Below are positions 7,985-64,000 of a DNA stretch of 64,000 nt, in pieces. The notes below the pieces were generated by a model. It made no database searches. It was not told where the DNA came from and saw only the letters and a program-made list of their open reading frames with translations. The translations under genes and the position numbers were made by a program. Source of the DNA: Carcharhinus amblyrhynchos (lineage: Eukaryota); the NCBI GenBank assembly GCA_965287045.1, contig OZ336882.1, positions 80,476,001 to 80,540,000 on the forward strand. The letters run 5' to 3'. Position 1 is the stretch's first letter, and each line of letters starts with the position of its first letter.

Positions 7985-9825
7985 TCATCATTGCTTTCAT
8001 CCCCAGAGGGACCAATCCTGAATTCATCAAACGCGGATTCTCTGAAGACGCCACTCCCTGACAATATCGACATCGACAATCTGAGCAAAAATTGATAACT
8101 TTACTGCCAGAGTCAGCACAGATAACCAAACTTGGGGAGGTGTGATCCTGAAAAACGCATTTGGCAAAAGCAACAGCAACGGTCTGCTTTGCTTGCAATT
8201 TAACGCTGAGCATGAACTTCTAAGCCGCGCAGTTTTCTGGCTCCAATGTCAAATTCAGACATCCTGAACGCGTTGACGGGAAAGCTGGCCATTGGAATCT
8301 CATGAACGACATAATTGTCAGGAAGGATGGCAGACAGGATGTAAGGATGATTCAGACCACGCGTGGCACCGACTGTTGGATTGAGCACAAGTATGTTATC
8401 TCCAAAGCATGTCTGAAGATTCAGCTAAAGTGACACCCTCAAGGCAATACGATCACCGAACGACTGAAAATCTCAAGCTTGAAGATTGACCACACCCAAC
8501 TGCAGCTCACTGATGATCTGTGGCGGCCAAGTGACCTTCAGAAACCCGAAGACAAGATCGAGGATCTTTGGGGTTTCTGACGGGATACAGTATATGCCAC
8601 AGCTGAACGGTTATTGGGTCGCACAAGGAGTAAGCACCAGGACTGGCTTGAAGGAAATGGCCCTGAAATCCGGCATCCTTTTGAAAAAAAAATACAAAGT
8701 ACACAGAGCATACCTAAATGAAAATCCGGAGGCAAAATAACTGTTTATAACACTATTCGTAGCACAGTTCAAGGCAGATTACATGAAATGCAGGGCAAGT
8801 GGCTGAGACAAAAGACAGATGAAACACAAGCCTGTGTTGTCAAAACATACACGAGGCACCACTACGAATCTGTCAGGATGTTCCTTAGGGTTCACCCAGA
8901 CAATTGCTCTCCGCTATTCAGTGTTTCAGAGACGACACTACTCACAGTGTAATTTCTGATGTTAGAGACGGCTGTGTCTTTCAAAAACACCCACAATTGG
9001 CCATCCCATATTAATGATGAAGTTGCAAGTAAACATCCCCAGTCAATACCAGCGCTTGCTCGGGACTTCACCCACACTGTTTGAAAGAGAGAAAGCCTTC
9101 GAGTAATTGTCAAATGACAAAGTCCCTGGAGCCGATCAAATTCCAGTAGACATCTATACATATGGTGCATCATGGAAACTCAGAATGTCCACCCACCTCT
9201 GAAGTTCACATGCAAGCAACGGATCCTCCCACAATGCTTCAATGACTGTTTCTTTGCTTATATCTGCAAACATGAAGTCAAACTCCAGTCCTGTGACAAA
9301 CACAACTGATTATATGAGCTGACTATTTCCGGAAAGGACTTTGCCAGAACCCTTCTAAACCGACTCACCTGAGCAAGGTTCTTTCCGGAGAGCAATTTTT
9401 GTCAGGGCAAACAAAAATGGAACCATCGACATGGCATTTGTTGTTCACCAAATGCAGGAGAAATGCCCAAACCAAAATGTTGAACAAGGCACCAAATTCA
9501 TCCATCTTGCCAAGTCTTCGAAATTGTTAGCAGCGAAGGACTCTGATGTATTTATAGTAAGTTTGGGCTTCCATACTAACTCAATCAGATGGCTCGACAG
9601 TTGTACAATGGCCTGCAGGCCCGGCTGCGCCTTGACAATATGATTTCGGCCCCGTTCTGTGTCATCAATGGAGTGTAACAGTGCTGCATACTGGCACTAG
9701 TCCTCTTGCGCATCATGTTCTTAGTCGCGCACACTAATGCCATCGAGGCTAAGGATTAGGAATAGAAATCAGTTATGGAATAGACAGCCGGACTTTCAAT
9801 TTGAGACGCCACAAAGTCAAGAAGT
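7985..9825 (+). mobile_element. Decayed RTE/BovB-like LINE (endonuclease plus RT), longest copy
   Basis: Motifs: NFTARV..WGGVI..GKSNSNGLL..AEHELL, HWNLMNDIIVRKDGRQDVR..RGTDCWIEH, KHQDWLEGN, MAFVVHQMQEKC, NGV*QCCILA, FNLRR. Many stops and frameshifts. Confidence 0.8.
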
Positions 9826-10734
9826 CCAAAATGCCAGAATAAGAGAATAATAAATCTTCGCAAATCTTTGGGTGGTAGTCATGATAGAGATGGGCAGCAG
9901 CGTAGCCATGAGCGATTTGTATTTAAGGGCCAGGGCTTTAAAATGGAGGCATTGCTCGTCCAGAGACAAAAAAAACATTTGGTCAAATTAAATACTGACC
10001 AAGTGGTCAGGAAGACTCCTGCAAAAAGTTTCAATCGATGAAACATCGTGTCCACACGGCAAGGAGCTATTTTCATCGCTTGTTGATGGACTGAACTCTC
10101 AAATAGGGAAAATATATCAACGTACTGTGAAATTTTCTTTGCAGCTCGGCTGCACTGAGTTCAATCGCCAGCAATAGCTTAGTGCCACTCGTTCAGAGTG
10201 ATGCAACGTGTCCGTCAAGCTGTGTCAAGCTCTGGGTCTCAAATTCTCATTGGTGCGTCAGAGGGGTAGTAAAGAATGATACCAAACCTAATCTCTATTT
10301 CACGGGTTGGCACGGGACACTCTGAAATAGTATCACCTCAAGTAATGATTCAGTAGATCATACATATTTAAGTTCAGTTAGCATTGATAATGATAGATTA
10401 ACATGAATGGTAAATTTGTAGTTTAGTTCCTACAATTCAGATTGTAGTAAAGACACAGGAGAGTAAGATAATTGTCACAAGTAAAAACGACTATTCATCA
10501 CTAATTATCACAATGCCCATCAAGTGAAAATTTATGGACACAGGAGCGAAATACAAATAAGCTGTACATTAGATGCATGCATTTAAATCAGTGCATGATG
10601 AAACTGGCAGAATCAAACATTGTGTCCACGGGGATGGCCCATTCTGTCTTCTGGGAACCAGCGCAGAACACATGAGCTCCAGGATTCCTTTCAGATCACT
10701 GATGTTATTTGACGGAGCTTCATGGACTGACTGA

Positions 10735-10930
10735 GTGTCGATTGGCCTACAAGGATTCCCTCCTGAGGAAAGGGACTTTGTTGATTTAATTTGGTGAATA
10801 TGACGCAATGAGTGCGTAGCCTGATTTTTTTCCTCCAGGGAATGTATTACAGTACAAAAAGGGGAGAGTTTAGGAATCGTTTATACAACGGTGCATCGAG
10901 CGAAACCTTTGCATTCTCCTCGAAATCACA
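10735..10930 (+). promoter_or_regulatory. Candidate proximal promoter of GPCR copy 1 (equivalent in each unit)
   Basis: Reverse CCAAT (ATTGG at 10741), TGACGCAAT (10801), TACAAAAAGGGG (10853; TATAAAAAGGGG in copy 3 at 35528), and strong Kozak acaATGG. Motif-based only. Confidence 0.4.
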
Positions 10931-13900
10931 ATGGCCCGCCCATTAATTGAACAGATCAATGATCATTTCTATCCTGTGCTGGCAGCTTTTGGTGCTCCCG
11001 GTAAGTCAATGTATCATGTTGTCTCATAGTTGCCGAGGACCTCACTGCTCACTGATTCAGCAACTGAACGCGAGAAGGTCATTATTGCAATGTCTTTTCT
11101 CTGCCGAGGTAAATTGTTGAATATCAGTGAGAGTCTCAACGGTTCGCATGGCCTGTGAGCCGCGGTTCAGCTCGGAAGAATGTGACACCTGGAGTTTAAC
11201 TTCCCTCTCCACATTTTCGGAGATGGAGGCTGATTCTCTGCCCTTCCAACACTTCATAGATCTGTATGCGATTTATTTGCAGTGACAATCTGTATCGTTT
11301 CCCCTTTAAGATGACAATAACTGGAAATGCGGCCTCTCCGGAAAGCAAAAATCATTGGATGATAGTTCAAGGAAAAATTGCTGCCCAGGAGGTTGCTCAT
11401 CCTCAGAGTTGCAAATCCGTTCCGTTGTTTCCCTTTCTGTGCCCGACAGCTCCCTTCCGCTGATGATAAACATTAGAATCCCACCGTCTCGAATTAATTT
11501 CAAGAGCTATTTTCTCACCTCATTGATGCATATGAAAGACTTACTATTATTTACATAACGTGTGAATATTGCGTTTAGCGCCCCTGATATTAGATGCAGC
11601 TCTTGAAATTTAACTGAAGACACTAAATTCAATCGATTGCCCCACCGTGCCGCTGCGCTCACTCCTACAATTGGTCGGTGCATCACCTGACACAAGCCTC
11701 GTGGTGGATGGATTTATTTGTCAGAGCTGCAGCACAGGGAATTACTGTATAGAAATCAATCATTTGTTTGGTTGAATTTACTTTATCCATTTGTGTGATG
11801 TGGGAATCGATGTCCTATATTGTTCATTCGTCGTTGCCCTTCGGATGCGGGTGGTGAGCTGCCTTCCTGATCCGCTGCTGTCCATGTGGTAAGTGCACCC
11901 ACAGTGCTGGTCGAGGGAAAGAGAGTTTCAAGATTTTGGTACAACTACAGTGAAGGAACAGTGATATATTTTCCACTCAGTTTGTCCAGTGACTTTGGGA
12001 GAAGATTAAGACGGCGGTGTTCCAATCTATCTGCTGCCCTTGAATTTTTAGATGATAGTGGTCGAGGCTTTTGTATAATGCCGTGTAAGGTGCCTGGTGA
12101 GTTTCAGTAAATGCTGTTCACGGCTGGCCCAGCGTGCCTGCGGTAGAGGTAGTGAACATTTTGTGGGCGGGTTAGCATTCCAACCGCCTGCTTCATCCTT
12201 CATTGTCTAGAACATCTTGAGTGTCTTTGGAGCCGCCCTCGCGCAGGTAAATGGAGAGTATTCCATCACTCCATCAACTTATAAACGGTGCACAGGATAT
12301 TGGGAGACAAGAGGTCTGTTATTCACCGCAGGATTCCTAACCGCTGATCTGCTTTTGTGGACACTATTTATTTGCTAAAATAAGCAAAATACAGTGGATG
12401 CTGGAATCTGAAACAAAAGTAAAGAATGCCAGAAAAACACGGACTGTTTTCTTCCCTGACGGAAACTGTCAGCCCTGCTGAGATTTTCTAATTTTTTTTG
12501 TCATATGGCTCGCCCAGTTCAGGTTGTGTTCACGGTTGATGCTAATAGTTGCGGACTCAGTGATGGCATTGCGTGTCAAGGGGAAATGGTTAGATTATGT
12601 GTTGTTGTCGGCGGTCATTTCTTAAACTTGTGTGACACAGGCGTTATTTCCCACTTGTCAGCCCAAACCTGGATGTTGTCTACACCTTGCTGCATTTGGA
12701 CACCGGCAGCCTCGGTATCTGAAGGCTGACGTATGATACGGTATATTGTGCAGCCATCAATGATCATTCCCACTTCTGACCTTATATTGAAAGAAAGGTT
12801 ATGATGAAGCAGCTGAAGACGTTTGAGCCTAGGACATTCACTGGGGAAATGACGGAATGTAGAATTTATTGAACAAACCGGAATTTCCTTTCTGAGGATT
12901 TCCCTTAGTATGAGGTTTGATTTCGACTTCGGGTGAATGGAGTTTCAGACCAGTGTCAGGGCTGATGCTTACTGTAATTAAATCGATATGGATGGAAGGA
13001 AGCTGATCCCAGATCACCCTGTTTATCCAAGTCTCCGAAATCACAATTGATCCCAATTGAGACTTGGGTTCTTTTGTTGACGATTGTGCTGAGGGGAACT
13101 TTCCATTAACATTCTGTACAATGAATCCGGCGACCCTCCGCTCAATATGTGGAAAAAAAAGACTTAAATTATTGCAATGGGGATAATATCGCAGGTGCCT
13201 AAATATTGAGTTTATGGCGATCTGTTTCAATAAAAATATCACCTCTGCTCGCTTGTACAATAGAAGGAGTCCATGTCAATAACTGAGTAAAGATGCACCC
13301 AAACATTTCACTAAAGTATGCTTTGAGTGTTACCAGACTGTTTCCATGACTTGGCTCTTCTCCCTCGTTTTTACAGCGAATCTCGTGACCATCGTGATCC
13401 TCGCCAAAGGAAATTGTGGCCTTTCCAGATGTGTCTCTATCTACATGGTGGCCATGGCAACAGCAGATTTGTTGGTGATGCTCATCAATGTAATTTTGTA
13501 TAACCTTCTAAGAAAACGTTTTCCGAATTCATTCCTCTCCTACACTGTTGTTTGCAAATTAATGATATATATGCTTTGTAATAACCTGTATATGTCAGTA
13601 TGGTTTACAGTCTCATTCACAGTTGACCGATATGTTGCTATATGTAGTCAGAAGTTTAGAACAATCTATTGCACCGCGAGAAGAGCGACTGCAGTTTTAA
13701 CAACAGCCTCAGTCCTCATCTATTTACAGAACTTGTATGTTTGGTTTGCATTTGAACATAAACGCACAATTAATGGTGTTCAATGGGGTGTCCTCCCCAG
13801 CCAGGATTTTTATACTTCTCAAATTGGTGATACAGTCGTCTTGTTACAAAGTATCTTATTGAACTGGATTCCCTTCATTTTGATATTACTATTAAACTTT

Positions 13901-14314
13901 TTGACAATCAGAAGGATTTTGTTGTCCAGCAAAGCCCGTGCAGGCCTGCGGGGTCAAAACAGCGAGAATCAGAATGATCCAGAGATACAGAACCGAAGGA
14001 AGTCCATTATTCTATTGTTCACTATTTCTAGTAGCTTTCTATTGTTGTGGGCGACAAGAGTCATTACGTATTTAGCCAGTCGGATGCTCGTTTATGTCCG
14101 GTCCGATTACACGTCCGCTGCATATATCGCCGCCGAAGCCGGAACACTGCTCATTCATTTAAGTTCATGCACAAACACGTGCATTTATGCAGCTACACAA
14201 GCTAAATTCAGGGAAGAGCTAAAGAAGATCGCGAAATCTCCTTGGACAATAATTCTGATGTTGCAAAAATATGTAAAATTAAAGAATGCCGTCCTTCCTG
14301 CCACAAAAATATAA
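10931..14314 (+). CDS. GPR139/GPR142-like class A GPCR, copy 1; join(10931..11000,13377..14314), 335 aa
   Basis: Exon 1 encodes MARPLIEQINDHFYPVLAAFGAP+G and ends at donor G|GTAAGT. The acceptor ctcttctccctcgtttttacag|CG is phase 1 and restores TM1 GAPANLVTIVIL. Other motifs: TM2 MATADLL, TM3 SVWFTVSFTVDRYVAIC, TM5 WIPFILILLLN, TM7 SSCTNTCIY, helix 8 KFREEL. Confidence 0.92.
11810..12850 (-). mobile_element. Old antisense CR1/L2-type LINE fragment in the GPCR intron (present in all units)
   Basis: Reverse complement at 12800-12848 reads PQ-x-VLGSNVFSCFI, similar to [17 protein letters not shown]. It is interrupted at ~12378-12500 by a short repeat (aagcaaaatacagtggatgctggaatctgaaac). Equivalents lie at ~22125-24100, 36485-37525, 50425-51465 and 63095-64000. 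Confidence 0.55.
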
Positions 14315-14538
14315 CGTGTTTCTTGAAATAACGGCCTTCAGAAGCACTGTGCCATTTTTTGTTGTATCTTCTGATGCCTACTGCTATTCGCGAGTAATTT
14401 TTGCTGTTTCCTTCTGTAGCGGCTTACTCCAATCACTGTGCACAGAAAACACGAATGATATCATTCAACAGTGGAGTAAAATGGGTTCGTATCAGTCCTA
14501 GCTGCCGTACAGTGCACGCAATGCCTTATGCCGCATTT

Positions 14539-15813
14539 AAATTTAGTGGAGTTCTATGAGGATGTGTCTAGGGCGTTGGATAGAGGAGAGCCGGTGGATG
14601 TGGTCTTTCTTGATTTTCAGAAGGCGTTTGACAAGGTACCTCACAAGAGTTATTGCAGAAGGTAAGGGGGCATGGAGTTGGGGGTCGGGTGTTAGCGTGG
14701 ATAGAGGATTGGTTGTCAGATAGGAGGCAGAGAGTGGGGGTTAATGGGTGCTATTCGGATTGGCGGTTGGTGACTAGTGGAGTGCCCCAGGGGTCGGTGC
14801 TGGGCCCTCAGCTATTTAAAATTTATATAGATGATCTGGAGGAGGGATCCGAGTGTATGGCGTCGAAATTTGCTGATGACACCAAGATTGGTGGAACGGC
14901 AAATTGCGCGGAGGGTGTGGAGAGTCTCCAGAAGGATCTCGATAGGCTGGGCAAATGGGCCAGGAAATGGCAAATGGAATTTAATGTTGGTAAGTGCGAG
15001 GTGGTCCACTTTGGTAGCAATAATGGTAGGAAGGACTATTACTTACGTGGCGGAAAACTGCAGCAGGCGACGGTGCAGAGGGACCTCGGGGTCCTTGCGC
15101 ATGAGTCGCAAAAACCCAGCCTGCAGGTGCAGCAGGTGGTCAGGAAGGCTAATGGGATGCTGTCCTTCATAGCGAGGGGGATTGAATATAAAAGTAGGGA
15201 GGTCTTGCTGCGGCTGTATAGGGCATTGGTGAGGCCGCAGCTGGAGTACTGTGTGAAGTTTTGGTCGCCGTACCAACGCAAGGATATTTTGACCTTGGAG
15301 GGAGTGCAGAGGAGGTTTACTAGGCTGATACCGGAGTTGAGGGGGTTGAGCTATGAGGAGAGGCTGAATAAACTAGGCTTGTACTCGTTAGAGTTTAGAA
15401 GAATGAGGGGAGATCTCATTGAGACATATAAGATGATGATTGGGATGGACAGGATAGAGGTGGAGAGACTCTTCCCGCTCAGAAAGGACAGTAGGAATAG
15501 TGGGCACAGCCTCAAGATAAAGGGCAGGGGGGCGGTTTAGAACGGAGTTGAGGAGGAACTTCTTCACTCAAAGGGTGGTGAATCTCTGGAATTCTCTGCC
15601 CGTTGAGGTAGTGGAGGCTGCCTCGCTAAATATTTTTAAGACGCGGGTTGATGGGTTTCTGATAAGCGAGGGGATTAAATGATATGGGGAGAGGGCGGGA
15701 ATGTGGAACTGAGCCACGACACGTCAGGGATGATCTTATTGAATGGCGGGGCAGGCTCGAAGGGCTAGATGGGCTACTCCTGCTCTTATTTCTTTTGTTC
15801 TTATTATGTTCTT
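14539..15813 (+). mobile_element. 5'-truncated CR1/HER1-like LINE 3' of GPCR, unit 1
   Basis: RT motifs [29 protein letters not shown], plus 3' UTR and tail. Same insertion site in units 1-4. Confidence 0.95.
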
Positions 15814-15819
15814 TCTACG

Positions 15820-18125
15820 ATACATCGCAGGTACTGCCTTGCAGCGCTTCTATTGCCTTACATTGTAGGTACTACCTTACACCGCAGAAACCATCTTACA
15901 CCGCAGCACTGACTTAAACTACAGGAACTGCGTTGCACCATAGGTACTGCCTGTCCCGCAGGTATAACATTACACAGCAGGTATTGCTCACACCACTTTC
16001 TCCGCAGGCTCACCGCAGGTACCACCTTCTGGTACCTTCTGGTACTTCTGGTACTTCAGGCACTCTGCTACAAGGTGGTACCAGATGTTCCATGTTCCAG
16101 CACAGGTGGTTCATTGCACGACAGGAATCGCCCTGCCCTGCAGGCACTACCTTGAACCACAGTACCGCTTTATGCTGCGGCTTCTGCCTGACACCGCAGA
16201 CACTACGTTACACATCACTGCCTTACCTCGCAGGCATTGCATACACCACAGTTTCTCCCTCAAACTACAGTGGCTGCCTTGTACCGCAGACTGCCTTGCA
16301 CCTCAGGTCCCACATTCCACCGCATGTATTACCTCGAACCGCGGACGCCGCATTACACCACAGATGCGGCCTTGTAACAAAGATGCTGTTTTTCACTTAA
16401 ACTACTTTCTTACACAACAGGTACAACGCAGGGAACTGCTTACACGGCCGCTAGTGCCGGAAACCGGAGACACTGCATCACATTAAGAACATAAGAACTT
16501 AAGAAATAGGAGCAGGAGTAGGCCATCTAGCCCTTCGAGCCTGCCCCGCCATTCAATAAGATCATGGGTGATCTGTTGTGGCTCAGATCCACTTTCCCGC
16601 CCTCTCCCCATAACCCTTAATCCCCTCTCTTACCAAGAACCCATCAACCCGCTTCTTAAAAATATTTAGCGAGGCAGCCTCCACCACTTCAACGGGCAGA
16701 GAATTCCAGAGATTCACCTCCCTTTGAGTGAAGAAGTTCCTCCTCAACTCCGTTCTAAACCGCCTCCCCTTTATCTTGAGGCTGTGCCCCCTAGTCCTAC
16801 TGTCTTTTTTGACCACAGTTTGTGTCTCACGCCCAGGTGATGCACCGCAGCACAGCTACCGCCATTCCATTCATGTTCTTCCTTATAGAATAGATATGTC
16901 TTAAACCGATGGTCCTGCCTTACACCGCAGATATTGCCTTACACCACAGTTTCTGGTTACGGCACAGTTTCTGTCTGGCTCCGCAGTTAATGTCTCACAC
17001 CACAGGTTCTCCTTGATAACTCCACAATGCTATCTTGAACCAAAGGCTCTGCATTGAACTACCGATACTGCATTGTGCAACAGTTTTTACACCGAAGCTA
17101 CTTTCTTGCAAACACGATACCGCCTTATTTCAGAGGAACTTCATTGCACAACAGGTACTGCCTTGCACCACAGCTAATGATTTGCACAACAGATATTGCA
17201 GCTACTGCCTTATACCGCAGGTTCTGCCTTCCACTGCAGGCGCTCACTGACTCTAAAGGGACTAACTCACACTGCGTGCACCGCCTTAAAACCGCAGTGT
17301 CTATGTAAAGCAGAGGTACGACCTGGAACTTTAGATTCTGCATTACACCACAGGATTTAAACTGAAGCTACTTTCTTACACCATATGTACCACCTTTCAC
17401 TGTAAGCGCTCCCTTACACCGCGAGTACTTTTATTTAACATCTCCGCAGCCTCTTTATACTGCCCTGCAGCAATGGCATGCCTTCCACCACAAGTACTGC
17501 CTTCAGCGTCGTAACTGCCTTCATTGTAAGTACTGCCCTACGCCACACGTACTACCTTATACCGCAGGTATTGCCTTCTAAAGCCCGTATTGTCTTTACT
17601 CCAGAAACTGCACTACAGCGCAATAACTCATCTCAGATGCTTCCTTACACAACGGTACTGTCTTCACCAATGATGGGTGGCACAGTATACAAGGCCTTTC
17701 ATTGAGGTACTGCCTGACTCCACGGCTTTTGCCTTTCACAATAAGTACTTCGACAGACCACAGGTACTTTCTTCACTGCGGGAATTGGTTTCACCACAGT
17801 AGTTGTCTTGCCGAACAGTTATTGCCTTACACCTCAGTTGCTATCTACACAACAGCTGATGTCTTAATGTACAGGTGTTGCCTTACATCATACTTACAGC
17901 ATAGCTACTGTTTTAAACGACAGGTACTGCCCGGCACTTAATGCACAACATCGCTCCACAGCTATTGCCTTCACCGTAGACATTCCCTTACAAAACGGTT
18001 ACTGGCTTATACGGCAGATGCTACCTTAAACCACAAGTTTTGTGTTACGCCACAGACACCAATTTGTACCAGATACTGCCTGAGACCACAAGGAACGGCT
18101 TATAATACACAGGTAACGCTACTGT
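15820..18125 (+). repeat. Degenerate ~19-bp minisatellite, consensus approx. ACCGCAGGTACTGCCTTAC
   Basis: Many decayed repeats of caggtactgcctt(a/g)cacc(g/a). Internal short repeat ctggtac(c)tt near 16030-16060. Confidence 0.75.
16484..16812 (-). mobile_element. Antisense CR1 3' fragment (units 1 and 4 only)
   Basis: taagaacataagaac tail and ORF 16583-16816(-) KKDSRTRGHSLKIKG..NLWNSLP. Units 2 and 3 have the empty site cacattgcaagcactgtcttgcaccac. Confidence 0.93.
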
Positions 18126-18639
18126 GCTTTAAGAAATGCAAATTAATCACGTTCTCTGCAGTCATAACCTGTCACTGAGCCGCCTGCCTAAATGTCATTG
18201 AATTGCTCCTTAAATTATTAAATTGTTTATTTATTTATATTCAATCTGGGCCTAATGCACTCTCTTGGAGTTTATGGCAATTTTGGAATTGTTGGGTGCA
18301 GATATCTGACAGGGCAAGTGGAAGAGTTTTATTTTTTTCCTCGCAGGAATTATTTCACTTTCAGTTTCGGTTGCTGGTTTGTTAGAAATTGCTTGGACTC
18401 CAGGCTGGATGCAGTGTTTTTTCTCTACCTGGTATTAAAGATTCTGCTGCCTAGTAGGAATAGTCTTTCCTTCTTTTCAGCATGAACATTTTGCTGAAAA
18501 GTACGTCTTACTTGAGCATTTTACTAGCTGGAGGAAAGCAGTGGCACTGTATCCACCTGGAGTCTGGGAGTCTCAGAATGCAGCATGCAGTGTTTCACTT
18601 CTCCATCCAAATGATTAATATCCACAGGGTTTGCAGAGC

Positions 18640-52929: not shown

Positions 52930-53153
52930 CGTGTTTCTTGAAATAACGGCCTTCAGAAGCACTGTGCCATTCTTTGTTGTATCTTCTGATGCCTACTGCT
53001 ATTCGCGAGTAATTTTTGCTGTTTCCTTCTGTAGCGGCTGACTGCAATCAGTGTGCACAGAGAACACGAATGATATCATTCAACAGTGGAGTAAAATGGG
53101 TTCGTATCAGTCCTAGCTGCCGTACAGTGCACGCAATGCCTTATGCCGCATTT

Positions 53154-54428
53154 AAATTTAGTGGAGTTCTATGAGGATGTGTCTAGGGCGTTGGATAGAG
53201 GAGAGCCGGTGGATGTGGTCTTTCTTGATTTTCAGAAGGCGTTTCACAAGGTACCTCACAAGAGTTATTGCAGAAGGTAAGGGGGCATGGAGTTGGGGGT
53301 CGGGTGTTAGCGTGGATAGAGGATTGGTTGTCAGATAGGAGAGAGAGAGTGGGGGTTAATGGGTGCTATTCGGATTGGCGGTTGGTGACTAGTGGAGTGC
53401 CCCAGGGGTCGGTGCTGGGGCCTCAGCTATTTACCATTTATATAGATGATCTGGAGGAGGGATCCGAGTGTATGGTGTCGAAATTTGCTGATGACACCAA
53501 GATTGGTGGAACGGCAAATTGCGCGGAGGGTGTGGAGAGTCTCCAGAAGGATCTCGATAGGCTGGGCGAATGGGCCAGGAAATGGCAAATGGAATTTAAT
53601 GTTGGTAAGTGCGAGGTGGTCCACTTTGGTAGCAATAATGGTAGGAAGGACTATTACTTACGTGGCGGAAAACTGCAGCAGGCGACGGTGCAGAGGGACC
53701 TCGGGGTCCTTGCGCATGAGTCGCAAAAACCCAGCCTGCAGGTGCAGCTGGTAGTCAGGAAGGCTAATGGGATGCTGTCCTTCATAGCGAGGGGGATTGA
53801 ATATAAAAGTAGGGAGGTCTTGCTGCGGCTGTATAGGGCATTGGTGAGGCCGCAGCTGGAGTACTGTGTGAAGTTTTGGTCGCCGTACCAACGCAAGGAT
53901 ATTTTGACCTTGGAGGGAGTGCAGAGGAGGTTTACTAGGCTGATACCGGAGTTGAGGGGGTTGAGCTATGAGGAGAGGCTGAATAAACTAGGCTTGTACT
54001 CGTTAGAGTTTAGAAGAATGAGGGGAGATCTCATTGAGACATATAAGATGATGAATGGGATGGATAGGATAGAGGTGGAGAGACTCTTCCCGCTCAGAAA
54101 GGACAGTAGGAATAGTGGGCACAGCCTCAAGATAAAGGGCAGGGGGGCGGTTTAGAACGGAGTTGAGGACGAACTTCTTCACTCAAAGGGTGGTGAATCT
54201 CTGGAATTCTCTGCCCGTTGAGGTAGTGGAGGCTGCCACGCTAAATATTTTTAAGACGCGGGTAGATGGGTTTCTGATAAGCGAGGGGATTAAATGATAT
54301 GGGGAGAGGGCGGGAATGTGGAACTGAGCCACGACAGGTCAGGGATGATCTTATTGAATGGCGGGGCAGGCTCGAAGGGCTAGATGGGCTACTCCTGCTC
54401 TTATTTCTTTTGTTCTTATTATGTTCTT
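53154..54428 (+). mobile_element. CR1/HER1-like LINE 3' of GPCR, unit 4
   Basis: Near-identical to the unit 1 copy (295-aa ORF 53268-54155). Confidence 0.95.
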
Positions 54429-54433
54429 TCTAC

Positions 54434-57400
54434 GATACATCGCAGGTACTGCCTTGCAGCCCTTCTATTGCCTTACATTGTAGGTACTACCTTACACCGC
54501 AGAAACCATCTTACACCGCAGCACTGACTTAAACTACAGGAACTGCGTTGCACCATAGGTACTGCCTGCACCGCAGGTATAACATTACACAGCAGGTATT
54601 GCTCACACCACTTCCTCCGCAGGCTCACCGCAGGTACCACCTTCTGGTACCTTCTGGTACTTCTGGTACTTCAGGTACTCTAGTACCAAGGTGGTACCAG
54701 ATGTACCACCTTCCAGCACAGGTGGTTTATTGCACGACAGGAATCGCCCTGCCCTGCAGGCACTACCTTGAACCACAGGACTGCTTTATGCTGCGGCTTC
54801 TGCCTGACACCGCAGACACTACCTTACACATCACTGCCTTACCTCGCAGGCAATGCATACACCACAGTTTCTCCCTCAAACTACAGTGGCTGCCTTGTAC
54901 CGCAGAATGCCTTGCACCTCAGGTACCACATTCCACCGCATGTATTACCTCGAACCGCGGACGCCGCATTACACCACAGATGCGGCCTTGTAACAAAGAT
55001 GCTGTTTTTCACTTAAACTACTTTCTTACACAACAGGTACAACGCAGGGAGCTGCTTACACGGCCGCTAGTGCCGGAAACCGGAGACACTGCATCACGTT
55101 AAGAACATAAGAACAGAAGAAATAGGAGCAGGAGTAGGCCATCTAGCCCTTCGAGCCTGCCCCGCCATTCAATATGATCATGGCTGATCTGTTGTGGCTC
55201 AGTTCCACTTTCCCGCCCTCTCCCCATAACCCTTAATCCCCTCTCTTATCAAGAACCCATCAACCCGCTTCTTAAAAATATTTATCGAGGCAACCTCCAC
55301 CACTTCAACGGGCAGAGAATTCCAGAGATTCACCACCCTTTGAGAGAAGAAGTTCCTCCTCAACTCCGTTCTAAACCGCCTCCCCTTTATCTTGAGGCTG
55401 TGCCCCCTAGTCCTACTGTCTTTTTTGACCACAGGTTCTGTCTTACCGCAGCACTGCTACCGCCATTCCATTCATGTTCTTCCTTATAGAACAGATATGT
55501 CTTAAACCGATGGTCCTGCCTTACACCGCAGATATTGCCTTACACCACAGTTTCTGGTTACGGCACAGTTTCTGTCTAGCTCCGCAGTTAATGTCTCACA
55601 CCACAGGTTCTCCTTGATAACTCCACAATGCTATCTTGAACCAAAGGCTCTGCATTGAACTACCGATACTGCATTGTGCAACAGTATTTACACCGAAGCT
55701 GCTTTCTTGCAAACACGATAGCGCCTTATTTCAGAGGAACTTCATTGCACAACAGGTACTGCCTTGCACCACAGCTAATGATTTGCACAACAGATATTGC
55801 AGCTACTGCCTTATACCGCAGGTTCTGCCTTACACTGCAGGCGCTCACTGACTCTAAAGGGACTAACTCACACTGCGTGCACCGCCTTAAAACCGCAGTG
55901 TCTATGTAAAGCACAGGTACGACCTGGAACTTTAGATTCTGCATTACAACACAGGATTTAAACTGAAGCTACTTTCTTACACCATATGTACCACCTTTCA
56001 CTGTAAGCGCTCCCTTACACCGCGAGTACTTTTTTTTACATCTCCGCAGCCTCTTTATACTGCCCTGCAGCAATGGCATGCCTTCCACCACAAGTACTGC
56101 CTTCAGCGTAGTAACTGCCTTCATTGTAAGTACTGCCCTACACCACACGTACCACCTTATACCGCAGGTATTGCCTTCTAAAGCCTGTATTGTCTTTACT
56201 CCAGAAACTGCACTACAGCGCAATAACTCATCTCAGGTGCTTCCCCACACAACGGTACTGTCTTCACCAATGATGGGTGGCACAGTATACAAGGCCTTTC
56301 ATTGAGGTACTGCCTGACTCCACGGCTTTTGCCTTTCACAACAAGTAATTCGATAGACCACAGGCATTTTCTGCACTGGGGAATTGGTTTCATCACAGTA
56401 GTTACCTTCCAGAACAGTAATTGCCTCACACCTCAGTTGCTATCTACACAACAGCTGATGTCTTAATCTACAGGTGTTGCCTTACATCATACTTACAGCA
56501 TAGCTACTGTTTTAAACCACAGGTACTGCCCGGCACTTAAAGCACAACATCGCTCCACAGCTATTGCCTTCACCATAGACACCCCCTTACAAAGCAGTTA
56601 CTGGCTTAGACGGCAGATGCTACCTTAAACCACAAGTTTTGTGTTATGCCACAGACACCAATTTGTACCAGATACTGCCTGAGACCACAAGGAACGGCTT
56701 ATAATGCACAGGTAACGCTACTGTGCTTTAAGAAATGCAACTAAATCACGTTCTCTGCAGTCATAACCTGTCACTGAGCCGCCTGCCTAAATGTCATTTA
56801 ATTGCTCCTTAAATTATTAAATTGTTTATTTATTTATATTCAATCTGGGCCTAATGCACTCTCATGGAGTTTATGGCAATTTTGGAATTGTTGGGGGCAG
56901 ATATCTGACAGGGCAAGTGGAAGAGTTTGTTTTTTTTCCTCGCAGGAATTATTTCACTTTCAGTTTCGGTTGCTGGTTTGTTAGAAATTGCTTGGACTCC
57001 AGGCTGGTTGCAGTGTTTTTTCTCGACCTGGTATTAAAGATTCTGCTGGCTAGTAGGAATAGTCTTTCCTTCTTTTCAGCATGAACATTTTGCTGAAAAG
57101 TACGTCTTACTTGAGCATTTTACTAGCTGGAGGAAAGCAGTGGCACTGTATCCACCTGGAGTCTGGGAGTCTCAGAATGCAGAATGCAGTGTTTCACTTC
57201 TCCATCCAAAGGATTAATAACCACAGGGTTTGCAGTGCTGAAAAAACACTGAGCATATGTATTTACTGTGTTAAATCGAAATTAGGTGCATATGTTAGTA
57301 AGTATGTTGTGTTGGTACCGAATATTGAGCTATGGAGGCTTACAACATCATGGTTTTTTTTCTGTTATTGTTAGTCATTGGCGAAAGTTACTTTTAATTT

Positions 57401-58435
57401 TCTTTCTGTTAGTTAACTGTATTCTGGAATTAAATTTGTGTGATAAAAGCTCATCGGTCTGTCATTTCATTCATACCTGAGGTGAAACATCTCATGGTTA
57501 CCCACACCATATTCAATTTGCAAAACATAAAGTGCAGGCTGACCTCATAAAACACTTGAAATTCCTGACCTGGATTATAACACAGGCAAGTACTGCCTTC
57601 GGCAGCAGCTGCTGCGTTACACCACAGGTGCTATTTTATGCACAAGCTACTTGCTGATATCATAGCTTCTGCCTTACACCACTGGAGTTTCTTGACAGCG
57701 TAGAAACTGATTGCACCACAGGTATTGTATTGCATCAGACTCACATCCTTACACTGCACGTACTGGTGTACACCGCAGGTACTACCGTCCAAATGCAAGT
57801 AACGTCTTCACTGTAGGAACTGCCTCACAGAGCAGTAACAATGTTACATAGGTTGTACTGTCTTACACCGTCGGATAATACCTCACCCCATAGATACTGC
57901 CTTCACCACAGGAGCTGCCTCCACTTCAGAAGTGTCTTATATTGCAGGTACTACGTTATATCAAAGGCTTACGTAACTGGTGCCACATACTACAGACATG
58001 CTGCCTTGCGCCACAGATATACCTTAAACCGCAGGAAGTGTCTTTCACCACAGGTTCCGTTTTGCACCACAGATACTGCCTTACATCACAGATGCTGCCT
58101 TGCACCAAAGTTAATACCATACACCACAGTTCTGCCTTACACATCAGTTATCCTGTGAAACTGCTGGATCAGCCGAAAATCACATGTGCCTTGCCTGGTT
58201 ATGCCTTTTAGCACAGCTACTGCATTACACCACAAGTATAACCGGACGCTGCGGTTTCCTCTGAAACTGTAGCAACTGTTTCAGACCAGATGCTGCTTTA
58301 TTCTGTGGATTGACTTACAGTACAGTTACTGTGTAACACAAAGTTAGTGCCTTGTACTACAACTGCCGCATTTGACCACAGACAGCTTCACACCATAGAT
58401 AATTGCACACGGCAGGTGCCACCTGGTGCTTCATG
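54434..58435 (+). repeat. Degenerate minisatellite blocks, unit 4 (54434-56722 and 57575-58435)
   Basis: Same repeats. Confidence 0.7.
55100..55428 (-). mobile_element. Antisense CR1 3' fragment shared with unit 1
   Basis: Same junctions as 16484-16812. Confidence 0.93.
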
Positions 58436-59604
58436 TGGTATAATGTCATTCTCTAATTCAATGCCAAATGTAAGAGTTTAAAATGACCATAATCTTTCCA
58501 TTCTTTTTCATTTGTCTCCGATCCTCAGTTCATCCAAGCACTGTGCGTTTATCTATCCTGTTCTAGTTCTTCTCCTGTACAATCACCTGATCAGAATTCG
58601 TCAGCATGCATGGACCTGATATCTATTCAGGATCTGGACAATGTCAAAAGGCACAGTTTAACCAGTTGATCCATCGCTTCGTCCATGAGATTGTTTTGTC
58701 TTTACATTACTGATTAGCACACAATAGCTGTTACAGGTTGGCAGCTGAAGCAATGAAAGGTGAAATGCAGGATAGATACCAGTCAAACTTCTTCAACCCC
58801 TCCATCTGGAATAGCTTGCCAGAAAATAATCGAATGTCTCCTGTTCAATGTTGTGCAAAGGCTGACCTACACTGAGTCTGCGCGTGCAAAATTACTGAAC
58901 TAGACATGAAACAATCAAGATGTAATTTACGTGATGTTGTCCTCAACAATTGCTCAGAAACATGCTCCATCATGTGGGCAATATCGCTGCAAGAAATTAC
59001 TAATATCAGGAAGGGAGTGAGTACATACATCAAACTCACCCGGATGACTCGGGTGTTATATACATATGATGGCGCATTAAATAAACGAAGGGCGACAGTT
59101 TTTATCCATTTATGGGATGGGGGAGCTGTTTGGCCCCGGATACAATTTACTGTTCGTCTGAAATGGCCCCGGAGACAGCACTTAGCAGTCAACTAAATTG
59201 TTGTGTGGCTGGAGAAAGGAAACAAACAAGGTGAGGAAGGCATGTTTAATTCGTCATTGAGCATACATTAACGAGATGGTTATTTACGACAATCCACTCA
59301 TGGTCATCCAAGAGATTTTGAAAAAACATTGATTTCAAATTCCACAACATGAAGGTATTCGAACCCAGAATCCTACAATAAACGATCGGTATCTCCATTT
59401 CTATTACTGGTTTGCATTGCCAAAAAGATAAATGCATATACAGTTAACCTGTAACTTACCAGTAGTATGCCTATTGTCTTTTTTTTCTTCCTTTTGTGAT
59501 ATCCTTGTTCGTTCACTTTTTCAGACTGAGTACCAAAGAATAATCACATTAAATCAACAGTTACCAAGGCGGACACTGCATCAAAGGTTAGGGCCAGAAC
59601 TACG

Positions 59605-61118
59605 TAATTGTCGGGAAGGATGGCAGACAGGATGTAAGGATGATTCAGACCATGCGTGGCAACGACTGTTGGATTGAGCACAAGTATGTTATCTCCAAAG
59701 CATGTCTGAAGATTCAGCTAAAGTGACAACCTCAAGGCAATACGATCACCGAACGACTGAAAATCTCAAGCTTGAAGATTGACCACACCCAACTGCAGCT
59801 CACTGATGATCTAAGGCGGCCAAGTGACCTGCAGAAACACGAAGACAAGATCGAGGAACTTTGGGGTTTCTGACGGGATACAGTGTATGCCACAGCTGAA
59901 CGGTTATTGGGTCGCACAAAGAGTAAGCACCAGGACTGGCTTGAAGGAAATGGCCCTGAAATCCGGCATCCTTTTGAAAAAAAATACAAATTACACAGAG
60001 CATACCGAAATGAAAAATCCGGAGGCAAAATAACTGTTTGTAACACTATTCGTAGCACAGTTCAAGGCAGATTCCATGCAATGCAGGGCAAGTGGCTGAG
60101 ACAAAAGGCAGATGAAACACAAGCCTGTGTTGACAAAAATTACACGAGGCACCACTACGAATCTGTCAGGATGTTCCTCAGGGTTCACCCAGACTATTGC
60201 TCTCCGCTCTTCAGTGTTTCAGAGACGACACTACTCACAGTGTAATTTCTGATGTTAGAGACAGCTGGTTCATTCAAAAACACCCACAATTGGCCATCCC
60301 ATATTAATGATGAAGTTATATGTAAACATCCCCAGTCAATACCAGCGCTTGCTCGGGACTTCACCCACGCTGTTAGAAAGAGAGTGAGCTTTCGAGTAAT
60401 TGTCAAATGACAAAGTCCCTGGAGCCGATCAAATTCCAGTAGAAAAATATACATATGGCGCATCATGGAAACTCAGAATGTCCACCCACCTCTGAAGTTC
60501 ACATGCAAGCAACGGATCCTCCCACAATGCTTCAATGACTGTTTCTTTGCTTATATCTGCAAACATAAAGTCAAACTCCAGTCCTGTGACAAACACAACT
60601 GATTCTATGAGCTGACTATTCCCGGAAAGGACTTTGCCAGAATCCTTCTAAACCGACTCACCTGAGCAAGGTTCTTTCCGGAGAGCAATTTTTGTCAGGG
60701 GGAAACAAAAATGAAACCATCGACATGGCATTTGTTGTTCACCAAATGCAGGAGAAATGCCCAAACCAAAATGTTGAACAAGGCACCAAATTCATCCATC
60801 TTACCAAGTCTTCGAAATTGTTAGCAGGGAAGGACTCTGATGTATTTTGAGTAAGTTTGGTCTTCCATACTAACTCAATCAGATGGCTCGACAGTTGTAC
60901 AATGGCATGCAGGCCCGGCTGCGCCTTAACAAAATGATTTCGGCCCCGTTCTGTGTCATCAATGGAGTGTAACAGTGCTGCATACTGGCACTAGTCCTCT
61001 TGCGCATCATGTTCTTAGTCGCGCAGACTAATGCCATCGAGGCTAAGGATTAGGAATAGAAATCAGTTATGGAATAGGCAGCCGGACTTTCAATTTGAGA
61101 CGCCACAAAGTCAAGAAG
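59605..61118 (+). mobile_element. Decayed RTE-like LINE, unit 5
   Basis: Collinear with 8312-9825. Confidence 0.78.
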
Positions 61119-62214
61119 TCCAAAATGCCAGGATAAGAGAATAATAAATCTTAACAAATCTTTGGGTGGAAGTCATGATAGAGATGGGCAGCAGCGTAGC
61201 CATGAGCGATTTGTATTTAAGGGCCAGGGCTTTAAAATGGAGGCATTGCTCGTCCAGGGACAAAAACCTTTTGGTCAAATTAAATACTGACCAAGTGGTC
61301 AGGAAGACTCCTGCAAAAAGTTTCAATCGATGAAACATCGTGCCCACACGGCAAGGAACTGTTTTCATCTCTTGTTGAACTCTCAAATAGGAAAAATATA
61401 TCAACGTACTCTGAAATTTACTTTGCAGCTCGGCTGCACTGAGTTCAATCGCCAGCAATAGCTTACTGCCACTCGTTCAGAGTGATGCAACGTGTCCGTC
61501 AAGCTGTGTCAAGCTCTGGGTCTCAAATTTTTACTGGTGGGTCAGAGGGGTAGTAAAGAATGATACCAAACCTAATCTCTATTTCACGGGTTGGCACGGG
61601 ACACTCTGAAATAGTATCACCTCAAGTAATGATTCAGTAGATCATACATATTTCAGTTCAGTTAGCATTGATAATGATAGATTAACATGAATGGTAAATT
61701 TGTAGTTTATTTCCTACAATTCAGATTGTAGTAAAGACACAGGAAAGTAAGGTAATTGTCACAAGTAAAAACGGCTATTCATCACTAATTATCACAATGC
61801 CCATCAAGTGAAAATTTATGGACACAAGAACGAAATACAAATAAGCTGTACATTAGATGCATGCATTTAAATCAGTGCATTATGAAACTGGCAGAATCAA
61901 ACATTGTGTCCACGGGGATGGCCCATTCTGCCTTCTGGGAACCAGCGCAGAACACATGTGCTCCAGGATTCCTTTCTGATCGCTGATGTTATTTGACGGA
62001 GCTTCATGGACTGACTGAGTGTCGATTGGCCAACAAGGATTCCCTCCAGAGGAAAGGGACTTTGTTGATTTAATTTGGTGAATATGACGCAATGAGTGCG
62101 TAGCCTGATTTTTTTCCTCCAGGGAATGTATTACAGTACAAAAAGGGGAGAGTTTAGGAATCGTTTATACAACGGTGCATCGAGCGAAACCTTTGCATTC
62201 TTCTCGAAATCACA

Positions 62215-62284
62215 ATGGCCCGCCCATTAATTGAACAGATCAATGATCATTTCTATCCTGTGCTGGCAGCTTTTGGTGCTCCCG
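62215..62284 (+). CDS. GPR139/GPR142-like GPCR, copy 5, exon 1 (exon 2 expected beyond the window)
   Basis: Encodes MARPLIEQINDHFYPVLAAFGAP+G, donor GTAAGT at 62285; the intron is collinear with the other units to the window end. Confidence 0.85.
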
Positions 62285-64000
62285 GTAAGTCAATGTACCA
62301 TGTTGTCTCATAGTTGCCGAGGACCTCTCTGCTCACTGATTCAGCAACTGAACGCGAGAAGGTCATTATTGCAATGTCTTTTCTCTGCCGAGGTAAATTG
62401 TTGAATATCAGTGAGAGTCTCAACGGTTCGTATGGCCTGTGAGCCGCGGTTCAGCTCAGAAGAATGTGACACCTGGAGTTTAACTTCCCTCTCCACATTT
62501 ACGGAGATGGAGGCTGATTCTCTGCCCTTCCAACACTTCATAGATCTGTATGCGATTTATTTGCAGTGACAATCTGTATCGTTTCCCCTTTAAGATGACA
62601 ATAACTGGAAATGCGGCCTCTCCGGAAAGCAAAAATCATTGAATGATATTTCAAGGAAAAATTGCTGCCCAGGAGGTTGCTCATCCTCAGAGTTGCAAAT
62701 CCGTTCCGTTGTTTCCCTTTCTGTGCCCGACAGCTCCCTTCCGCTGATGATAAACATTACAATCCCACCGTCTCGAATTAATTTCAAGAGCTATTTTCTC
62801 ACCTCATTGATGCATATGAAAGACTTATTATTATTTACATAACGTGTGAATATTGCCTTTAGCGCCCCTGATATTAGATGCAGCTCTTGAAATTAAATTT
62901 ATGACACTAAATTCAATCGATTGCCCCACCGTGCCGCTGCGCTCACTTCTACAATTGGTCGGTGCATCACCTGACACAAGCCTCATGGTGGGTGGATTTA
63001 GTTGTCAGAGCTGCAGCACAGGGAATTACTGTATAGAAATCAATCATTTGTTTGGTTGAATTTATTTATTCATCTGTGTGATGTGGGAATCGATGTCCTT
63101 TATTGTACATTCTTCGCTGCCCTTCGGATGCGGGTGGTGAGCTGCCTTCCTGATCCGCTGCTGTCCAAATTGTAAGTGCGCCCACAGTGCTGGTCGAGGG
63201 AAAGAGTGATTCAAGATTTTGGTACAACTACAGTGAAGGAACAGTGATATATTTTCCACTCAGTTTGTCCAGTGACTTTGGGAGGACATTAAGACGGCGG
63301 TGTTCCAATATATCTGCTGCCCTTGAATTTTTAGATGATAGTGGTCGAGGGTTTTGTATAATGCCGTTTAAGGTGCCTGGTGAGTTCCAGTAAATGCTGT
63401 TCACGGCTGGCCCAGCGTGCCTGCGGTCGAGGTAGTTAACATTTTGTGGGCGGGTTAGCATTCCAACCGCCTGCTTCATCCTTCATTGTCTAGAACATCT
63501 TGAGTGTCTTTGGAGCTGCCCTCGTGCAGGTAAATGGAGAGTATTCCATCACACCATCAACTTATAAGCGGTGGACAGGATTTTGGGGGACAAGAGGCCT
63601 GTTATTCACCGCAGGATTCCTAACCGCTGATCTGCTTTTGTGGACACTATTTATTTGCTAAAATAAGCAAAATACAGTGGATGCTGGAATCTGAAACAAA
63701 AGTAAAGAATGCCGGAAAAACACGGACTGTTTTCTTCCCTGACGGAAACTGTCAGCCCTGCTGAGATTTTCTAATTTTTTTTGTCATATGGCTCGCGCAG
63801 TTCAGGTTGTGTTTCCGGTTGATGCTAATAGTTGCGGACTCAGTGATGGCATTGCGTGTCAAGGGGAAATGGTTAGATTATGTATTGTTGTAGGCGGTCA
63901 TTTCTTAAACTTGTGTGACACAGGCGTTATTTCCCACTTGTCAGCCCAAACCTGGATGTTGTCTACATCTTGCTGCATTTGGACACCGGCGGCCTCGGTA

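Follow-up and report, generated by a model that had tools for sequence, protein, structure and literature searches.

Self-BLAST of the window, meaning the whole 64,000-nucleotide stretch of Carcharhinus amblyrhynchos DNA analysed here, showed five head-to-tail units of 10-14 kb, with starts near 8304, 18640, 32994, 46932 and 59597 and all features on the forward strand. The same layout was found in each copy: an exon 1 of 70 nt (from the ATG to a GTAAGT donor) and, after an AG acceptor, an exon 2 of 938 nt, which together predict a G-protein-coupled receptor (GPCR) of class A with 335 aa. The initial annotation had described this arrangement, with one two-exon seven-transmembrane (7TM) gene per unit, and self-BLAST, exon mapping and Pfam 7tm_1 matches confirmed it.

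The receptor copies and their protein class

Unit 1 (8304..18640, ~10.3 kb, approximate boundaries) contains exon 1 at 10931..11000, which encodes the N-terminus and the first half of TM1, ends in a phase-1 donor and is homologous to the N-termini of shark relatives, and exon 2 at 13377..14314, which runs from position 1.49 in TM1 to the stop and completes an intact gene. A truncated LINE reverse-transcriptase fragment (14539..15813, Pfam RVT_1), which we take to be CR1-like, lies behind it and has a counterpart in all units, the copies being 94.5-98.7% alike. Unit 2 (18640..32993, ~14.4 kb) carries exon 1 at 21246..21315, exon 2 at 24634..25571 and the LINE counterpart at 25796..27082. It also has a second LINE fragment of its own (28067..28938) and an extra LINE 3' fragment (22426..23342) found only in the intron of this copy by self-BLAST and by intron length, which is 3318 nt here and 2376-2378 nt in the others. 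Copy 2 is intact and differs from copy 1 at 19 of 335 aa, and this exact count agrees with the earlier one.

In unit 3 (32994..46931, ~13.9 kb) exon 1 lies at 35606..35675, exon 2 at 38054..38991 and the LINE fragment at 39908..41172; the frame is open, and its C37W change hits an ICL1 cysteine conserved in 108 of 120 homologues. Unit 4 (46932..59596, ~12.7 kb) has exon 1 at 49546..49615, exon 2 at 51992..52929 and the LINE fragment at 53154..54428, and its gene is a pseudogene with a TAG at codon 247 in TM6 (52660-52662). Unit 5 (59597..64000) extends ~4.6 kb past the window end; exon 1 is at 62215..62284 and exon 2, fully open, follows 661 bases after the last window position (G000:C13:80540661). 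The initial count of three intact copies, one with a nonsense codon and one partial thus holds for copies 1-4, while copy 5 was partial only because of the window edge, so that four of the five are intact when the sequence beyond it is included. The array is real: over 6,169 gap-free columns its units differ by 2.6-4.9%, with insertions specific to individual units, more than would be expected for uncollapsed haplotypes.

All three tested frames of exon 2 matched Pfam 7tm_1 (E 1e-16 to 1e-17) and the structure model of copy 1 showed seven helices plus helix 8 (mean pLDDT 90.3); with N1.50, D2.50 and DRY, these features place the products in class A (rhodopsin-like). Pfam matches were restricted to 7tm_1 and Srw, and the OR, TAAR, V1R, V2R, T1R and T2R families gave no match at E<=0.001 in any of the three copies. 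The Srw cut-off (PF10324, 22.2 bits) was passed weakly by copy 2 (26.5) and copy 3 (23.9), and Srw also matches true GPR139 proteins. Nematode srw is presumably a chemoreceptor bloom of the same FMRFamide/MIP-receptor-like superclade and, if so, a precedent for co-option of that branch. The ESM Atlas search returned only generic 7tm_1 and 'GPR139' clusters. The best PDB sequence match was human GPR139 (E 1.2e-10). Fold neighbours were peptide and chemoattractant receptors, and the fold search was rejected as a ranking of relatives since GPR139 (7vug) reached only rank 4 among near-equal scores.

Ancestry beside GPR139 and GPR142

GPR139 and GPR142 are orphan class A receptors for L-Trp and L-Phe in brain, pancreas and gut, according to PMC7318219. 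As database names imply, the copies could be duplicates of these genes with their sensing of aromatic amino acids retained: among the best 120 homologues, 111 carry the name 'probable/putative GPR139', human GPR139 is the top PDB match and the intron position is common to both. This explanation is very improbable. In a 39-protein tree the shark family groups with single amphibian and sturgeon genes (100/100), GPR139 and GPR142 form a separate clade (100/100), and an AU test rejected a single clade of all three (p=0.0105), which refutes orthology. Moreover, a search of this genome for true GPR139/142 scored 125 candidates, of which only two reached E<=1e-15, one copy each (at C18 and C21), and this GPR139 is 88% identical to that of birds. 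The earlier claim that the copies are not true GPR139 or GPR142 is therefore upheld.

The agonist pocket of GPR139 (E3x32, F3x33, H5x43, W6x48, R6x51 and N7x38, as listed in PMC7318219) points the same way. The window copies retain two of the six residues, W6x48 and R6x51, and L, C, Q and T, respectively, stand at the other four; the pocket positions vary freely across the family and are invariant in all seven GPR139/142 rows. Trp/Phe sensing is thus unlikely. The phase-1 intron before N1.50, which divides the family genes and GPR139/142 alike into two coding exons, was common to all ten genes checked in the GPR139/142 superclade, and a TM7 motif without proline is likewise general there, bar a minority with NPxxY (18 of 120 homologues in the family). 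NTCIY in place of NPxxY, which had been thought to set the copies apart, does not do so, as human GPR139 and both genes of this genome also lack the proline (NFFLY). Further differences from GPR139/142 lie in C3.25, which the family has and they do not, and in number, single genes against ~1,500 loci.

The tree recovered three vertebrate orphan lineages beside GPR139/142 (97/86). This genome has one gene for each of two of them (L032 and L033), and the third comprises the shark family with the amphibian and sturgeon genes; the family was already multi-copy earlier than the chimaera-shark split. It is almost certain that the window genes belong to an orphan class A family from one of these three ancient lineages sister to GPR139/GPR142. 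Regarding the proposal of young lineage-specific paralogues, the array is indeed young, but the family expanded across chondrichthyans from the third, older orphan lineage and is no offshoot of GPR139/142. PMC6504862 describes a 'GPR210' orphan group, whose three subtypes occur in coelacanth, gar and some fishes and stand beside GPR139/142 as the three lineages recovered here do. The family lineage probably belongs to this group, an equation that we infer, as the Ensembl ids of that paper could not be matched to the proteins analysed here. Its main text mentions neither sharks nor an expansion.

The literature searched contained no description of the expansion. Family names gave no match in the supplement of PMC13188829 (8 files) or in four of the five supplementary files of PMC11589584, and the supplements of PMC13200729 (5 files) and PMC8455134 (24 files) contained only a row for the true GPR139 orthologue and one GPR142 orthogroup line, respectively.

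Family size, turnover and selection

Two disjoint exact TM3 motifs marked 1,386 and 175 loci genome-wide, 1,561 in total, with 0 in controls; 29 of 30 checked motif loci belong to the family, and L044, a chance motif, was dropped before the counts. A C-terminal motif (305 matches, control 3) was rejected as a family total because it is absent from large subfamilies, being carried by none of 14 motif-A genes (C39/C41 grid samples) and none of 20 C32 genes. The loci are arranged in megabase arrays, with 313 motif matches in the C41 subfamily; density sampling, done outside C35-C38 and C42-C48, maps the location of most loci only in part. Exon 2 was open in 50 of 68 sampled loci and broken in 18, and subfamilies with open frames are only 40-50% identical to one another. 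Furthermore, 928 protein clusters (90% identity) matched, the best 120 from many shark and ray genomes, and the blooms are large and species-specific. The five window genes are a recent tandem bloom within a very large cartilaginous-fish family, and the scale of five copies gives way to ~1,500 loci. Clustered arrays with open and broken loci support the birth-and-death evolution suggested initially, and membership of a diversified repertoire is supported as well; large size, clustering and such turnover are features of a chemosensory repertoire, and the family has them.

Uncollapsed haplotypes or false duplication are a highly improbable source of this copy number. Two pairs of identical exon-2 sequences were found among 48 C41 genes, but the median pairwise protein identity in C41 is 86%, DNA identity is at least 99% in only 7 of 903 pairs, and the window units and the homologues from other genomes, as given above, also speak against it.

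Codon models were custom code on fixed FastTree trees. They covered 46 C41 sequences (L118-L121, from another subfamily, and two identical sequences were excluded), a local set without L004, L006 and one 5'-truncated relative, and 10 C32 sequences (the filter missed four of the 14 open C32 genes). In C41, dN was about fivefold higher in the outer half than in the inner half (0.131 vs 0.026); dS was also threefold higher there, with region-wide omega below 1 (0.66-0.81). Inner-half omega was 0.25-0.47 in two subfamilies. M2a was preferred over M1a (2dL 202.6), and of its 21 sites 17 lie in the outer half (p=1.7e-4); this preference persisted in all four outer-containing fragments with their own trees. 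However, recombination was detected (p=5e-4) and an inner fragment (codons 162-224) favours M2a too; with the outer rise in dS, this means that site tests may be inflated, and on these alignments the outer-half signal of positive selection is to be read as confounded by gene conversion. The C32 subfamily gave 2dL 23.2 for its 10 sequences. For 14 open local relatives omega was 0.55, below 1 (p=6e-5), and M2a was not significant (p=0.15); the six youngest copies had values of 0.59-0.73 with confidence intervals spanning 1.

Among the five window copies, 35 of ~775 nonsynonymous and 11 of ~230 synonymous sites were variable (p=0.86, dN/dS near 1), both at half the rate of noncoding sequence (484 of 4,941), and divergence was 1.9% in coding and 4.4% in noncoding sequence. 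The low coding divergence was not counted as purifying selection, since synonymous sites are equally low; exon homogenisation fits better than selection at the protein level. The initial annotation had held that dN/dS near 1 throughout the family would speak for neutral passengers, and this value was found in the window copies but not in the wider family. Arrays that are mostly neutral duplication products of recombination-prone chromosome ends or small chromosomes, with few members that matter, would also agree with the intervals of the youngest copies, the 18 broken loci, the LINE fragments common to the units and the position of the window, less than 1 Mb from the end of its contig. Such an origin is nevertheless quite improbable given the inner-half omega, the fivefold dN contrast, the frames kept open across such divergent subfamilies and a multi-copy state older than the chimaera-shark split. 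A conserved G-protein face with a diversified ligand face, another feature of chemosensory repertoires, was found here. From these patterns, we put the probability that the family is a functional ligand-recognition repertoire at roughly 0.85.

Possible roles of the repertoire

In such a repertoire, the conserved inner face (DRY/DRF, the basic ICL3-TM6 motif and helix 8) would couple to one G-protein pathway, and with the varied pocket (TM2/TM3/ECL2/TM5/TM6/ECL3/TM7) the ligands, small water-soluble molecules or short peptides, would differ between members, while turnover of the copies would come from unequal crossing-over and gene conversion. All five genes in the window probably share one specificity, as variants that are nearly redundant. 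Four sequencing runs were rejected as expression data: reads cover the intron and cross exon borders, the exon 1-exon 2 joint is absent among the 15 of 47 joints listed, and the runs behave as DNA of related organisms.

The most likely use would be external chemosensation, in the nose, taste or skin chemosensory cells, to which we give slightly less than an even chance. OR, TAAR, V1R/ORA, V2R/OlfC, T1R and T2R genes likewise form clustered arrays with birth-and-death turnover and species-specific blooms (PMC10869828, PMC6368271, PMC10116579), and ORs and TAARs share the short N-terminus and variable outer half; all differ in ancestry, and the shark family has one intron in TM1. On the other hand, catshark olfactory neurons are reported to be nearly all Go/TRPC2 microvillous, with V2Rs dominating expression (PMC10116579), which is a point against. 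No GPCR is among the 50 genes most specific to a catshark brain-plus-olfactory library (PMC11979771), a weak result as V2Rs are absent too.

Mammalian FPRs and MRGPRs, which are class A peptide-type receptors with tandem expansion and a variable pocket, serve immunity, itch and vomeronasal sensing and survey microbial or parasite products. By analogy, the repertoire could serve immune or barrier surveillance, with receptors on leukocytes or mucosa that detect metabolites or peptides of microbes or parasites. Outer-half positive selection with gene conversion characterises host-pathogen arms races no less than odorant receptors, which counts against the chemosensory reading, and the species-specific blooms and the fold neighbours would fit as well. 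This role is still unlikely: no immune genes were seen within the window, and neural/endocrine GPR139/142 are relatives of the sister lineages. FPRs and MRGPRs, likened by description and not by sequence, belong to an unrelated lineage of tens of genes against more than 1,000. Rather less probable again is the sensing of metabolites or peptides inside the body (gut, brain, gonad or sperm) as an extension of GPR139/142 nutrient sensing. The closest characterised relatives (PMC7318219) and the retained W6x48 and R6x51 favour it, but receptors for endogenous ligands are usually few and conserved, like GPR139 here, and one internal ligand does not agree with a variable pocket across ~1,500 loci.

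A bolder form of the external chemosensory reading can be offered only tentatively: an unrecognised chemoreceptor family unrelated to OR, TAAR, V1R and V2R, of which some sharks would have more than 1,000 intact genes, with one or few expressed per olfactory neuron, as the main repertoire of the shark nose. Cartilaginous fishes have many sensory neurons but a mean of 43.8 (20-62) olfactory receptor genes (PMC10869828), and the shark family is ~30 times this published repertoire. If true, this proposal would resolve the mismatch between large shark olfactory organs and ~40 known receptor genes, and the single amphibian and sturgeon genes would be relicts of a chemoreceptor family in bony vertebrates.

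In surveys, the olfactory repertoire of cartilaginous fishes, with that mean, ranks as the smallest of all vertebrates (PMC10869828), and their GPCRs are described as relatively few (PMC8455134). A class A family of ~1,500 loci contradicts this paucity for the present genome, whatever the function, and if the family is sensory the first statement would be overturned too. The family has been hidden under the automatic label 'probable GPR139', and caution is needed, as 'GPR139' matches in shark transcriptomes are mostly other than GPR139.

Structure and surroundings of the array

Self-comparison of the window revealed five head-to-tail units, with starts near 8304, 18640, 32994, 46932 and 59597, and the reading of the exons bore out the proposal of the initial annotation that all of them carry the same two-exon 7TM gene. 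In each unit this gene is built from an exon 1 of 70 nt with a GTAAGT donor and an exon 2 of 938 nt, which give a protein of 335 aa. Copy 1 (exon 1 10931-11000; exon 2 13377-14314), copy 2 (exon 1 21246-21315; exon 2 from 24634) and copy 3 (exon 1 35606-35675; exon 2 38054-38991) are open, and copy 4 (exon 1 from 49546; exon 2 from 51992) presents a TAG at codon 247. The nonsense codon and the 19 amino acid differences between copies 1 and 2 had been reported previously and were reproduced. However, copy 5 (exon 1 from 62215), which had been taken as partial, is only cut by the window edge: its exon 2 starts 661 bases beyond the end and is open, so the open copies are 1, 2, 3 and 5 and not three.

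The units diverge by 2.6-4.9% (6,169 gap-free columns) and share a truncated LINE fragment, while further LINE insertions are unit-specific. This divergence and the unit-specific insertions argue against uncollapsed haplotypes. Two further such genes, 95-97.6% alike, are located about 240 kb upstream of the window. By itself, the five-copy array is an ordinary young tandem duplication.

Regarding the sequence between the genes, the 3' part of the units (15900-18640, 27100-32400, 41200-45400 and 54500-59000) is taken up by a degenerate minisatellite-like sequence (18-19 bp), whose spurious long open frames gave no Pfam match. A 33-bp four-copy repeat is found in unit 3 only (39416-39547). Only units 1 and 4 have an inverted 330-bp LINE 3' piece on the minus strand, some 700 bp beyond the forward LINE fragment (16485-16812 and 55101-55428), which marks them as sisters. 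At the unit boundaries (8304-10200 and the start of every unit) lies a decayed element, with frames that resemble an old LINE and gave no Pfam match; it is a possible crossover point.

The copies also differ in exon 1, which is of two types, ILQIKELFYP in copies 2 and 3 (homologue-like) and IEQINDHFYP in copies 1, 4 and 5, with five nonsynonymous base changes in six codons of the extracellular N-terminus and the top of TM1. Furthermore, copy 3 has the changes C37W, where 108 of 120 homologues retain the cysteine, and N186I; though open, it may be impaired.

The window is less than 1 Mb from one end of an 81-Mb contig, inside a cluster of several megabases formed by a large cartilaginous-fish family of orphan class A GPCRs to which the five copies belong. 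A divergently oriented gene of another subfamily (G000:C13:80473529-80474529; loci L027 and L156 of this genome) is placed 1.5 kb before the window start, with 74% identity to a Mustelus protein and a stop-bearing duplicate at 80.23 Mb (L030). Another subfamily is represented 22 kb beyond the window end (C13:80562547-80569300; L022, L159). Small contigs are largely filled with the family, with one gene per ~12-25 kb in mixed orientation (C41 at 0.24-4.2 Mb, C32 at 0.1-2.6 Mb and beyond, C39 and C40). On contig C48 (1735321-1743066 and 151147), matches of equal score are just 2-5 kb apart, which is unusually close for a two-exon gene; these are possibly partial duplications.

A lineage separate from GPR139 and GPR142

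The true GPR139 of this shark was located on contig C18 by motif search and is 98% identical to Mustelus GPR139, which suggests that the shark is probably a carcharhiniform. When it was used as query, only two of 125 scored candidates matched at E<=1e-15, namely itself and GPR142 on C21. In a 39-protein tree, GPR139 and GPR142 form one clade (100/100), and the shark family clusters with genes of amphibians and sturgeon (100/100) and, at the next level, with the lineages of L032 and L033 (97/86). The family alone is a clade at 90/85, a 72-row quick tree agrees, and forcing it together with GPR139/142 was rejected (AU p=0.0105). The earlier view that the window genes are not true GPR139 is thus confirmed by the separate clade, the AU rejection and the gene on C18. 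The same phase-1 intron precedes N1.50 in 10 of 10 genes checked, GPR139 and GPR142 included, and the resemblance is therefore due to real common descent.

L032 (G000:C22:47.73 Mb; 64% to coelacanth) and L033 (G000:C7:106.8 Mb) are two more single genes, found with a coelacanth relative as query. Both are conserved single-copy orphan GPCRs of the same superclade, with ERF/ERY in TM3. Three orphan subtypes beside GPR139/142 have been named GPR210 in PMC6504862. The shark family and the L032 and L033 lineages would probably be this GPR210 group, and L032 and L033 would extend the probable GPR210 subtypes to sharks. Among the 25 matches of a word-limited search, the sister gene was represented by 20 amphibian clusters, a single one for each species, and by one sturgeon; none of the 25 came from amniotes or teleosts. 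A chimaera protein nests within the family next to a gene of this genome (97/93), and therefore the family was already multi-copy before the chimaera-shark split.

The NTCIY motif had been offered as a sign of non-GPR139 identity, but it fails as proof, since GPR139 and GPR142 themselves carry NFFLY. The agonist-pocket residues are a better argument. Of the six listed in PMC7318219, two (W248 and R251) are retained in the window copies, and the other four are replaced by L90, C91, Q181 and T280. All six positions are the same in 7 of 7 GPR139/142 rows, but freely variable across the family.

At the protein level, Pfam 7tm_1 was found in the three copies tested, two of them with a weak Srw match. 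AlphaFold (84-sequence alignment) predicted seven helices plus helix 8 (mean pLDDT 90.3). The Foldseek neighbours are peptide-type receptors of class A; GPR139 ranks fourth among them at nearly equal scores, and the best solved relative by sequence is human GPR139 (E 1.2e-10). A protein search matched 928 clusters, of which the best 120 all belong to sharks and rays and do not exceed 65% identity; 111 of these 120 are named 'probable/putative GPR139' and nine bear unrelated automatic names. The window copies keep C3.25 (C83) and have QWGVLP where 99 of 120 homologues present W-x-C with the ECL2 cysteine, so the usual TM3-ECL2 disulphide has probably been lost in the local branch (window copies, L012, L017-L025). 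No N-glycosylation sequon was found in copy 1.

Family size and selection

Protein search of the genome gave 2,979 candidates, and all 150 scored match at E<=5e-37. The genome-wide copy count proposed in the initial annotation yielded 1,561 loci, the sum of 1,386 exact matches to a back-translated TM3 motif and 175 to a disjoint variant (control 0 for each). The first 30 motif loci by position comprised 29 family members and one chance match. None of the 120 proteins from the GPR139/142 search contains the first motif, and of 120 homologues in other sharks only 50 do, so that the count is an underestimate more probably than an overestimate. Motifs of subfamilies gave 313 (C40/C41 type) and 587 matches, and grid sampling found 17 loci in 200 kb on C41, 4 in 100 kb on C39 and 1 in 100 kb on C40. 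Exon 2 was open and full-length in 22/29, 12/14, 2/4, 0/1 and 14/20 loci of five samples (50/68), which would mean roughly 1,100 intact genes, as extrapolated from exon 2 alone in motif-picked samples that lean to intact ones. The 48 C41 genes include two identical pairs, their proteins have a median identity of 86%, and a DNA identity of 99% is reached by just 7 of the 903 pairs formed by distinct genes.

With the outer half of the bundle (2.57-3.38, 4.55-5.46, 6.48-7.43) set by topology anchors after the variable columns were seen, dN was 0.131 in the outer versus 0.026 in the inner half for 46 C41 genes, and 0.096 versus 0.025 for 14 open local relatives (inner-half omega 0.25-0.47). Site models, run with our own codon-model code, favoured M2a over M1a in C41 (2dL 202.6), where 12% of sites have omega 3.6 and the outer half holds 17 of the 21 flagged sites (p=1.7e-4), and also in ten C32 genes (2dL 23.2). 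With their own trees, 4/4 outer-containing and 1/2 inner C41 fragments retained the signal. However, outer-half dS in C41 is also threefold higher, region-wide omega is below 1 and recombination was detected (p=5e-4); this is what homogenisation of the inner half by conversion looks like, and it inflates site tests.

That the copies are mostly neutral passengers, as dN/dS near 1 throughout the family would suggest, agrees with the five window copies, where nonsynonymous (35/~775) and synonymous (11/~230) changes are equal (p=0.86), both at half the noncoding rate. It does not agree with the 14 local genes, where omega is 0.55, below 1 (p=6e-5), although they give no M2a signal (p=0.15), and mostly neutral copies are quite improbable. 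The window copies, being too recent or too strongly homogenised, do not show family-wide selection and may be near-redundant. From the outer-inner contrast and the omega results, the whole family is therefore constrained yet diversified on the ligand face.

A probable repertoire for ligand recognition

In its arrays, the family multiplies a receptor that has a short N-terminus and a class A bundle, and whose G-protein face is conserved while its pocket and loops vary. It is very probable (roughly 0.85) that it constitutes a functional ligand-recognition repertoire. Copies would arise and vanish through gene conversion and through unequal crossing-over of the 10-14-kb units, each pocket variant would have its own ligand, a small soluble molecule or a short peptide, and all variants would signal via one common G protein. 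In genomic terms, the family behaves like a chemoreceptor repertoire outside every named chemoreceptor family and GPR139/142. The initial annotation, sound in its observations except for copy 5, holds only in part in its interpretation.

A repertoire of such size and shape fits the demands of external chemosensation or immune surveillance and not one internal ligand, and internal sensing is accordingly improbable. Immune or barrier use of the same repertoire, which fits equally well, is rated unlikely. For cartilaginous fishes, PMC10869828 gives 43.8 (20-62) known olfactory receptor genes alongside many sensory neurons, and the catshark has 40 v2r and 8 or genes (PMC6368271). The balance tilts to chemosensation on published context of this kind, and external chemosensation is a tentative reading at somewhat under even odds. 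In the catshark, where the neuronal layer is nearly continuous, the seven labelling probes together account for ~13 cells per mm (PMC10116579); this could reflect neurons without an assigned receptor or, alternatively, probe sensitivity. On the other side, V2Rs dominate catshark olfaction according to the same source, and the 50 genes most specific to brain plus olfactory tissue in PMC11979771 include no GPCR. That the family is an olfactory receptor family is possible but less likely than not.

Regarding prior description, a full-text literature search, mostly judged from abstract starts and covering few subscription journals, found none of the expansion. PMC8455134 instead describes cartilaginous fishes as relatively poor in GPCRs, and the accessible text of PMC10620051 makes no mention of the expansion. 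The genes are already annotated in public databases, with a name that misleads, and the family as such seems undescribed. The array matters as the visible tip of a ~1,500-locus orphan GPCR family of cartilaginous fishes.
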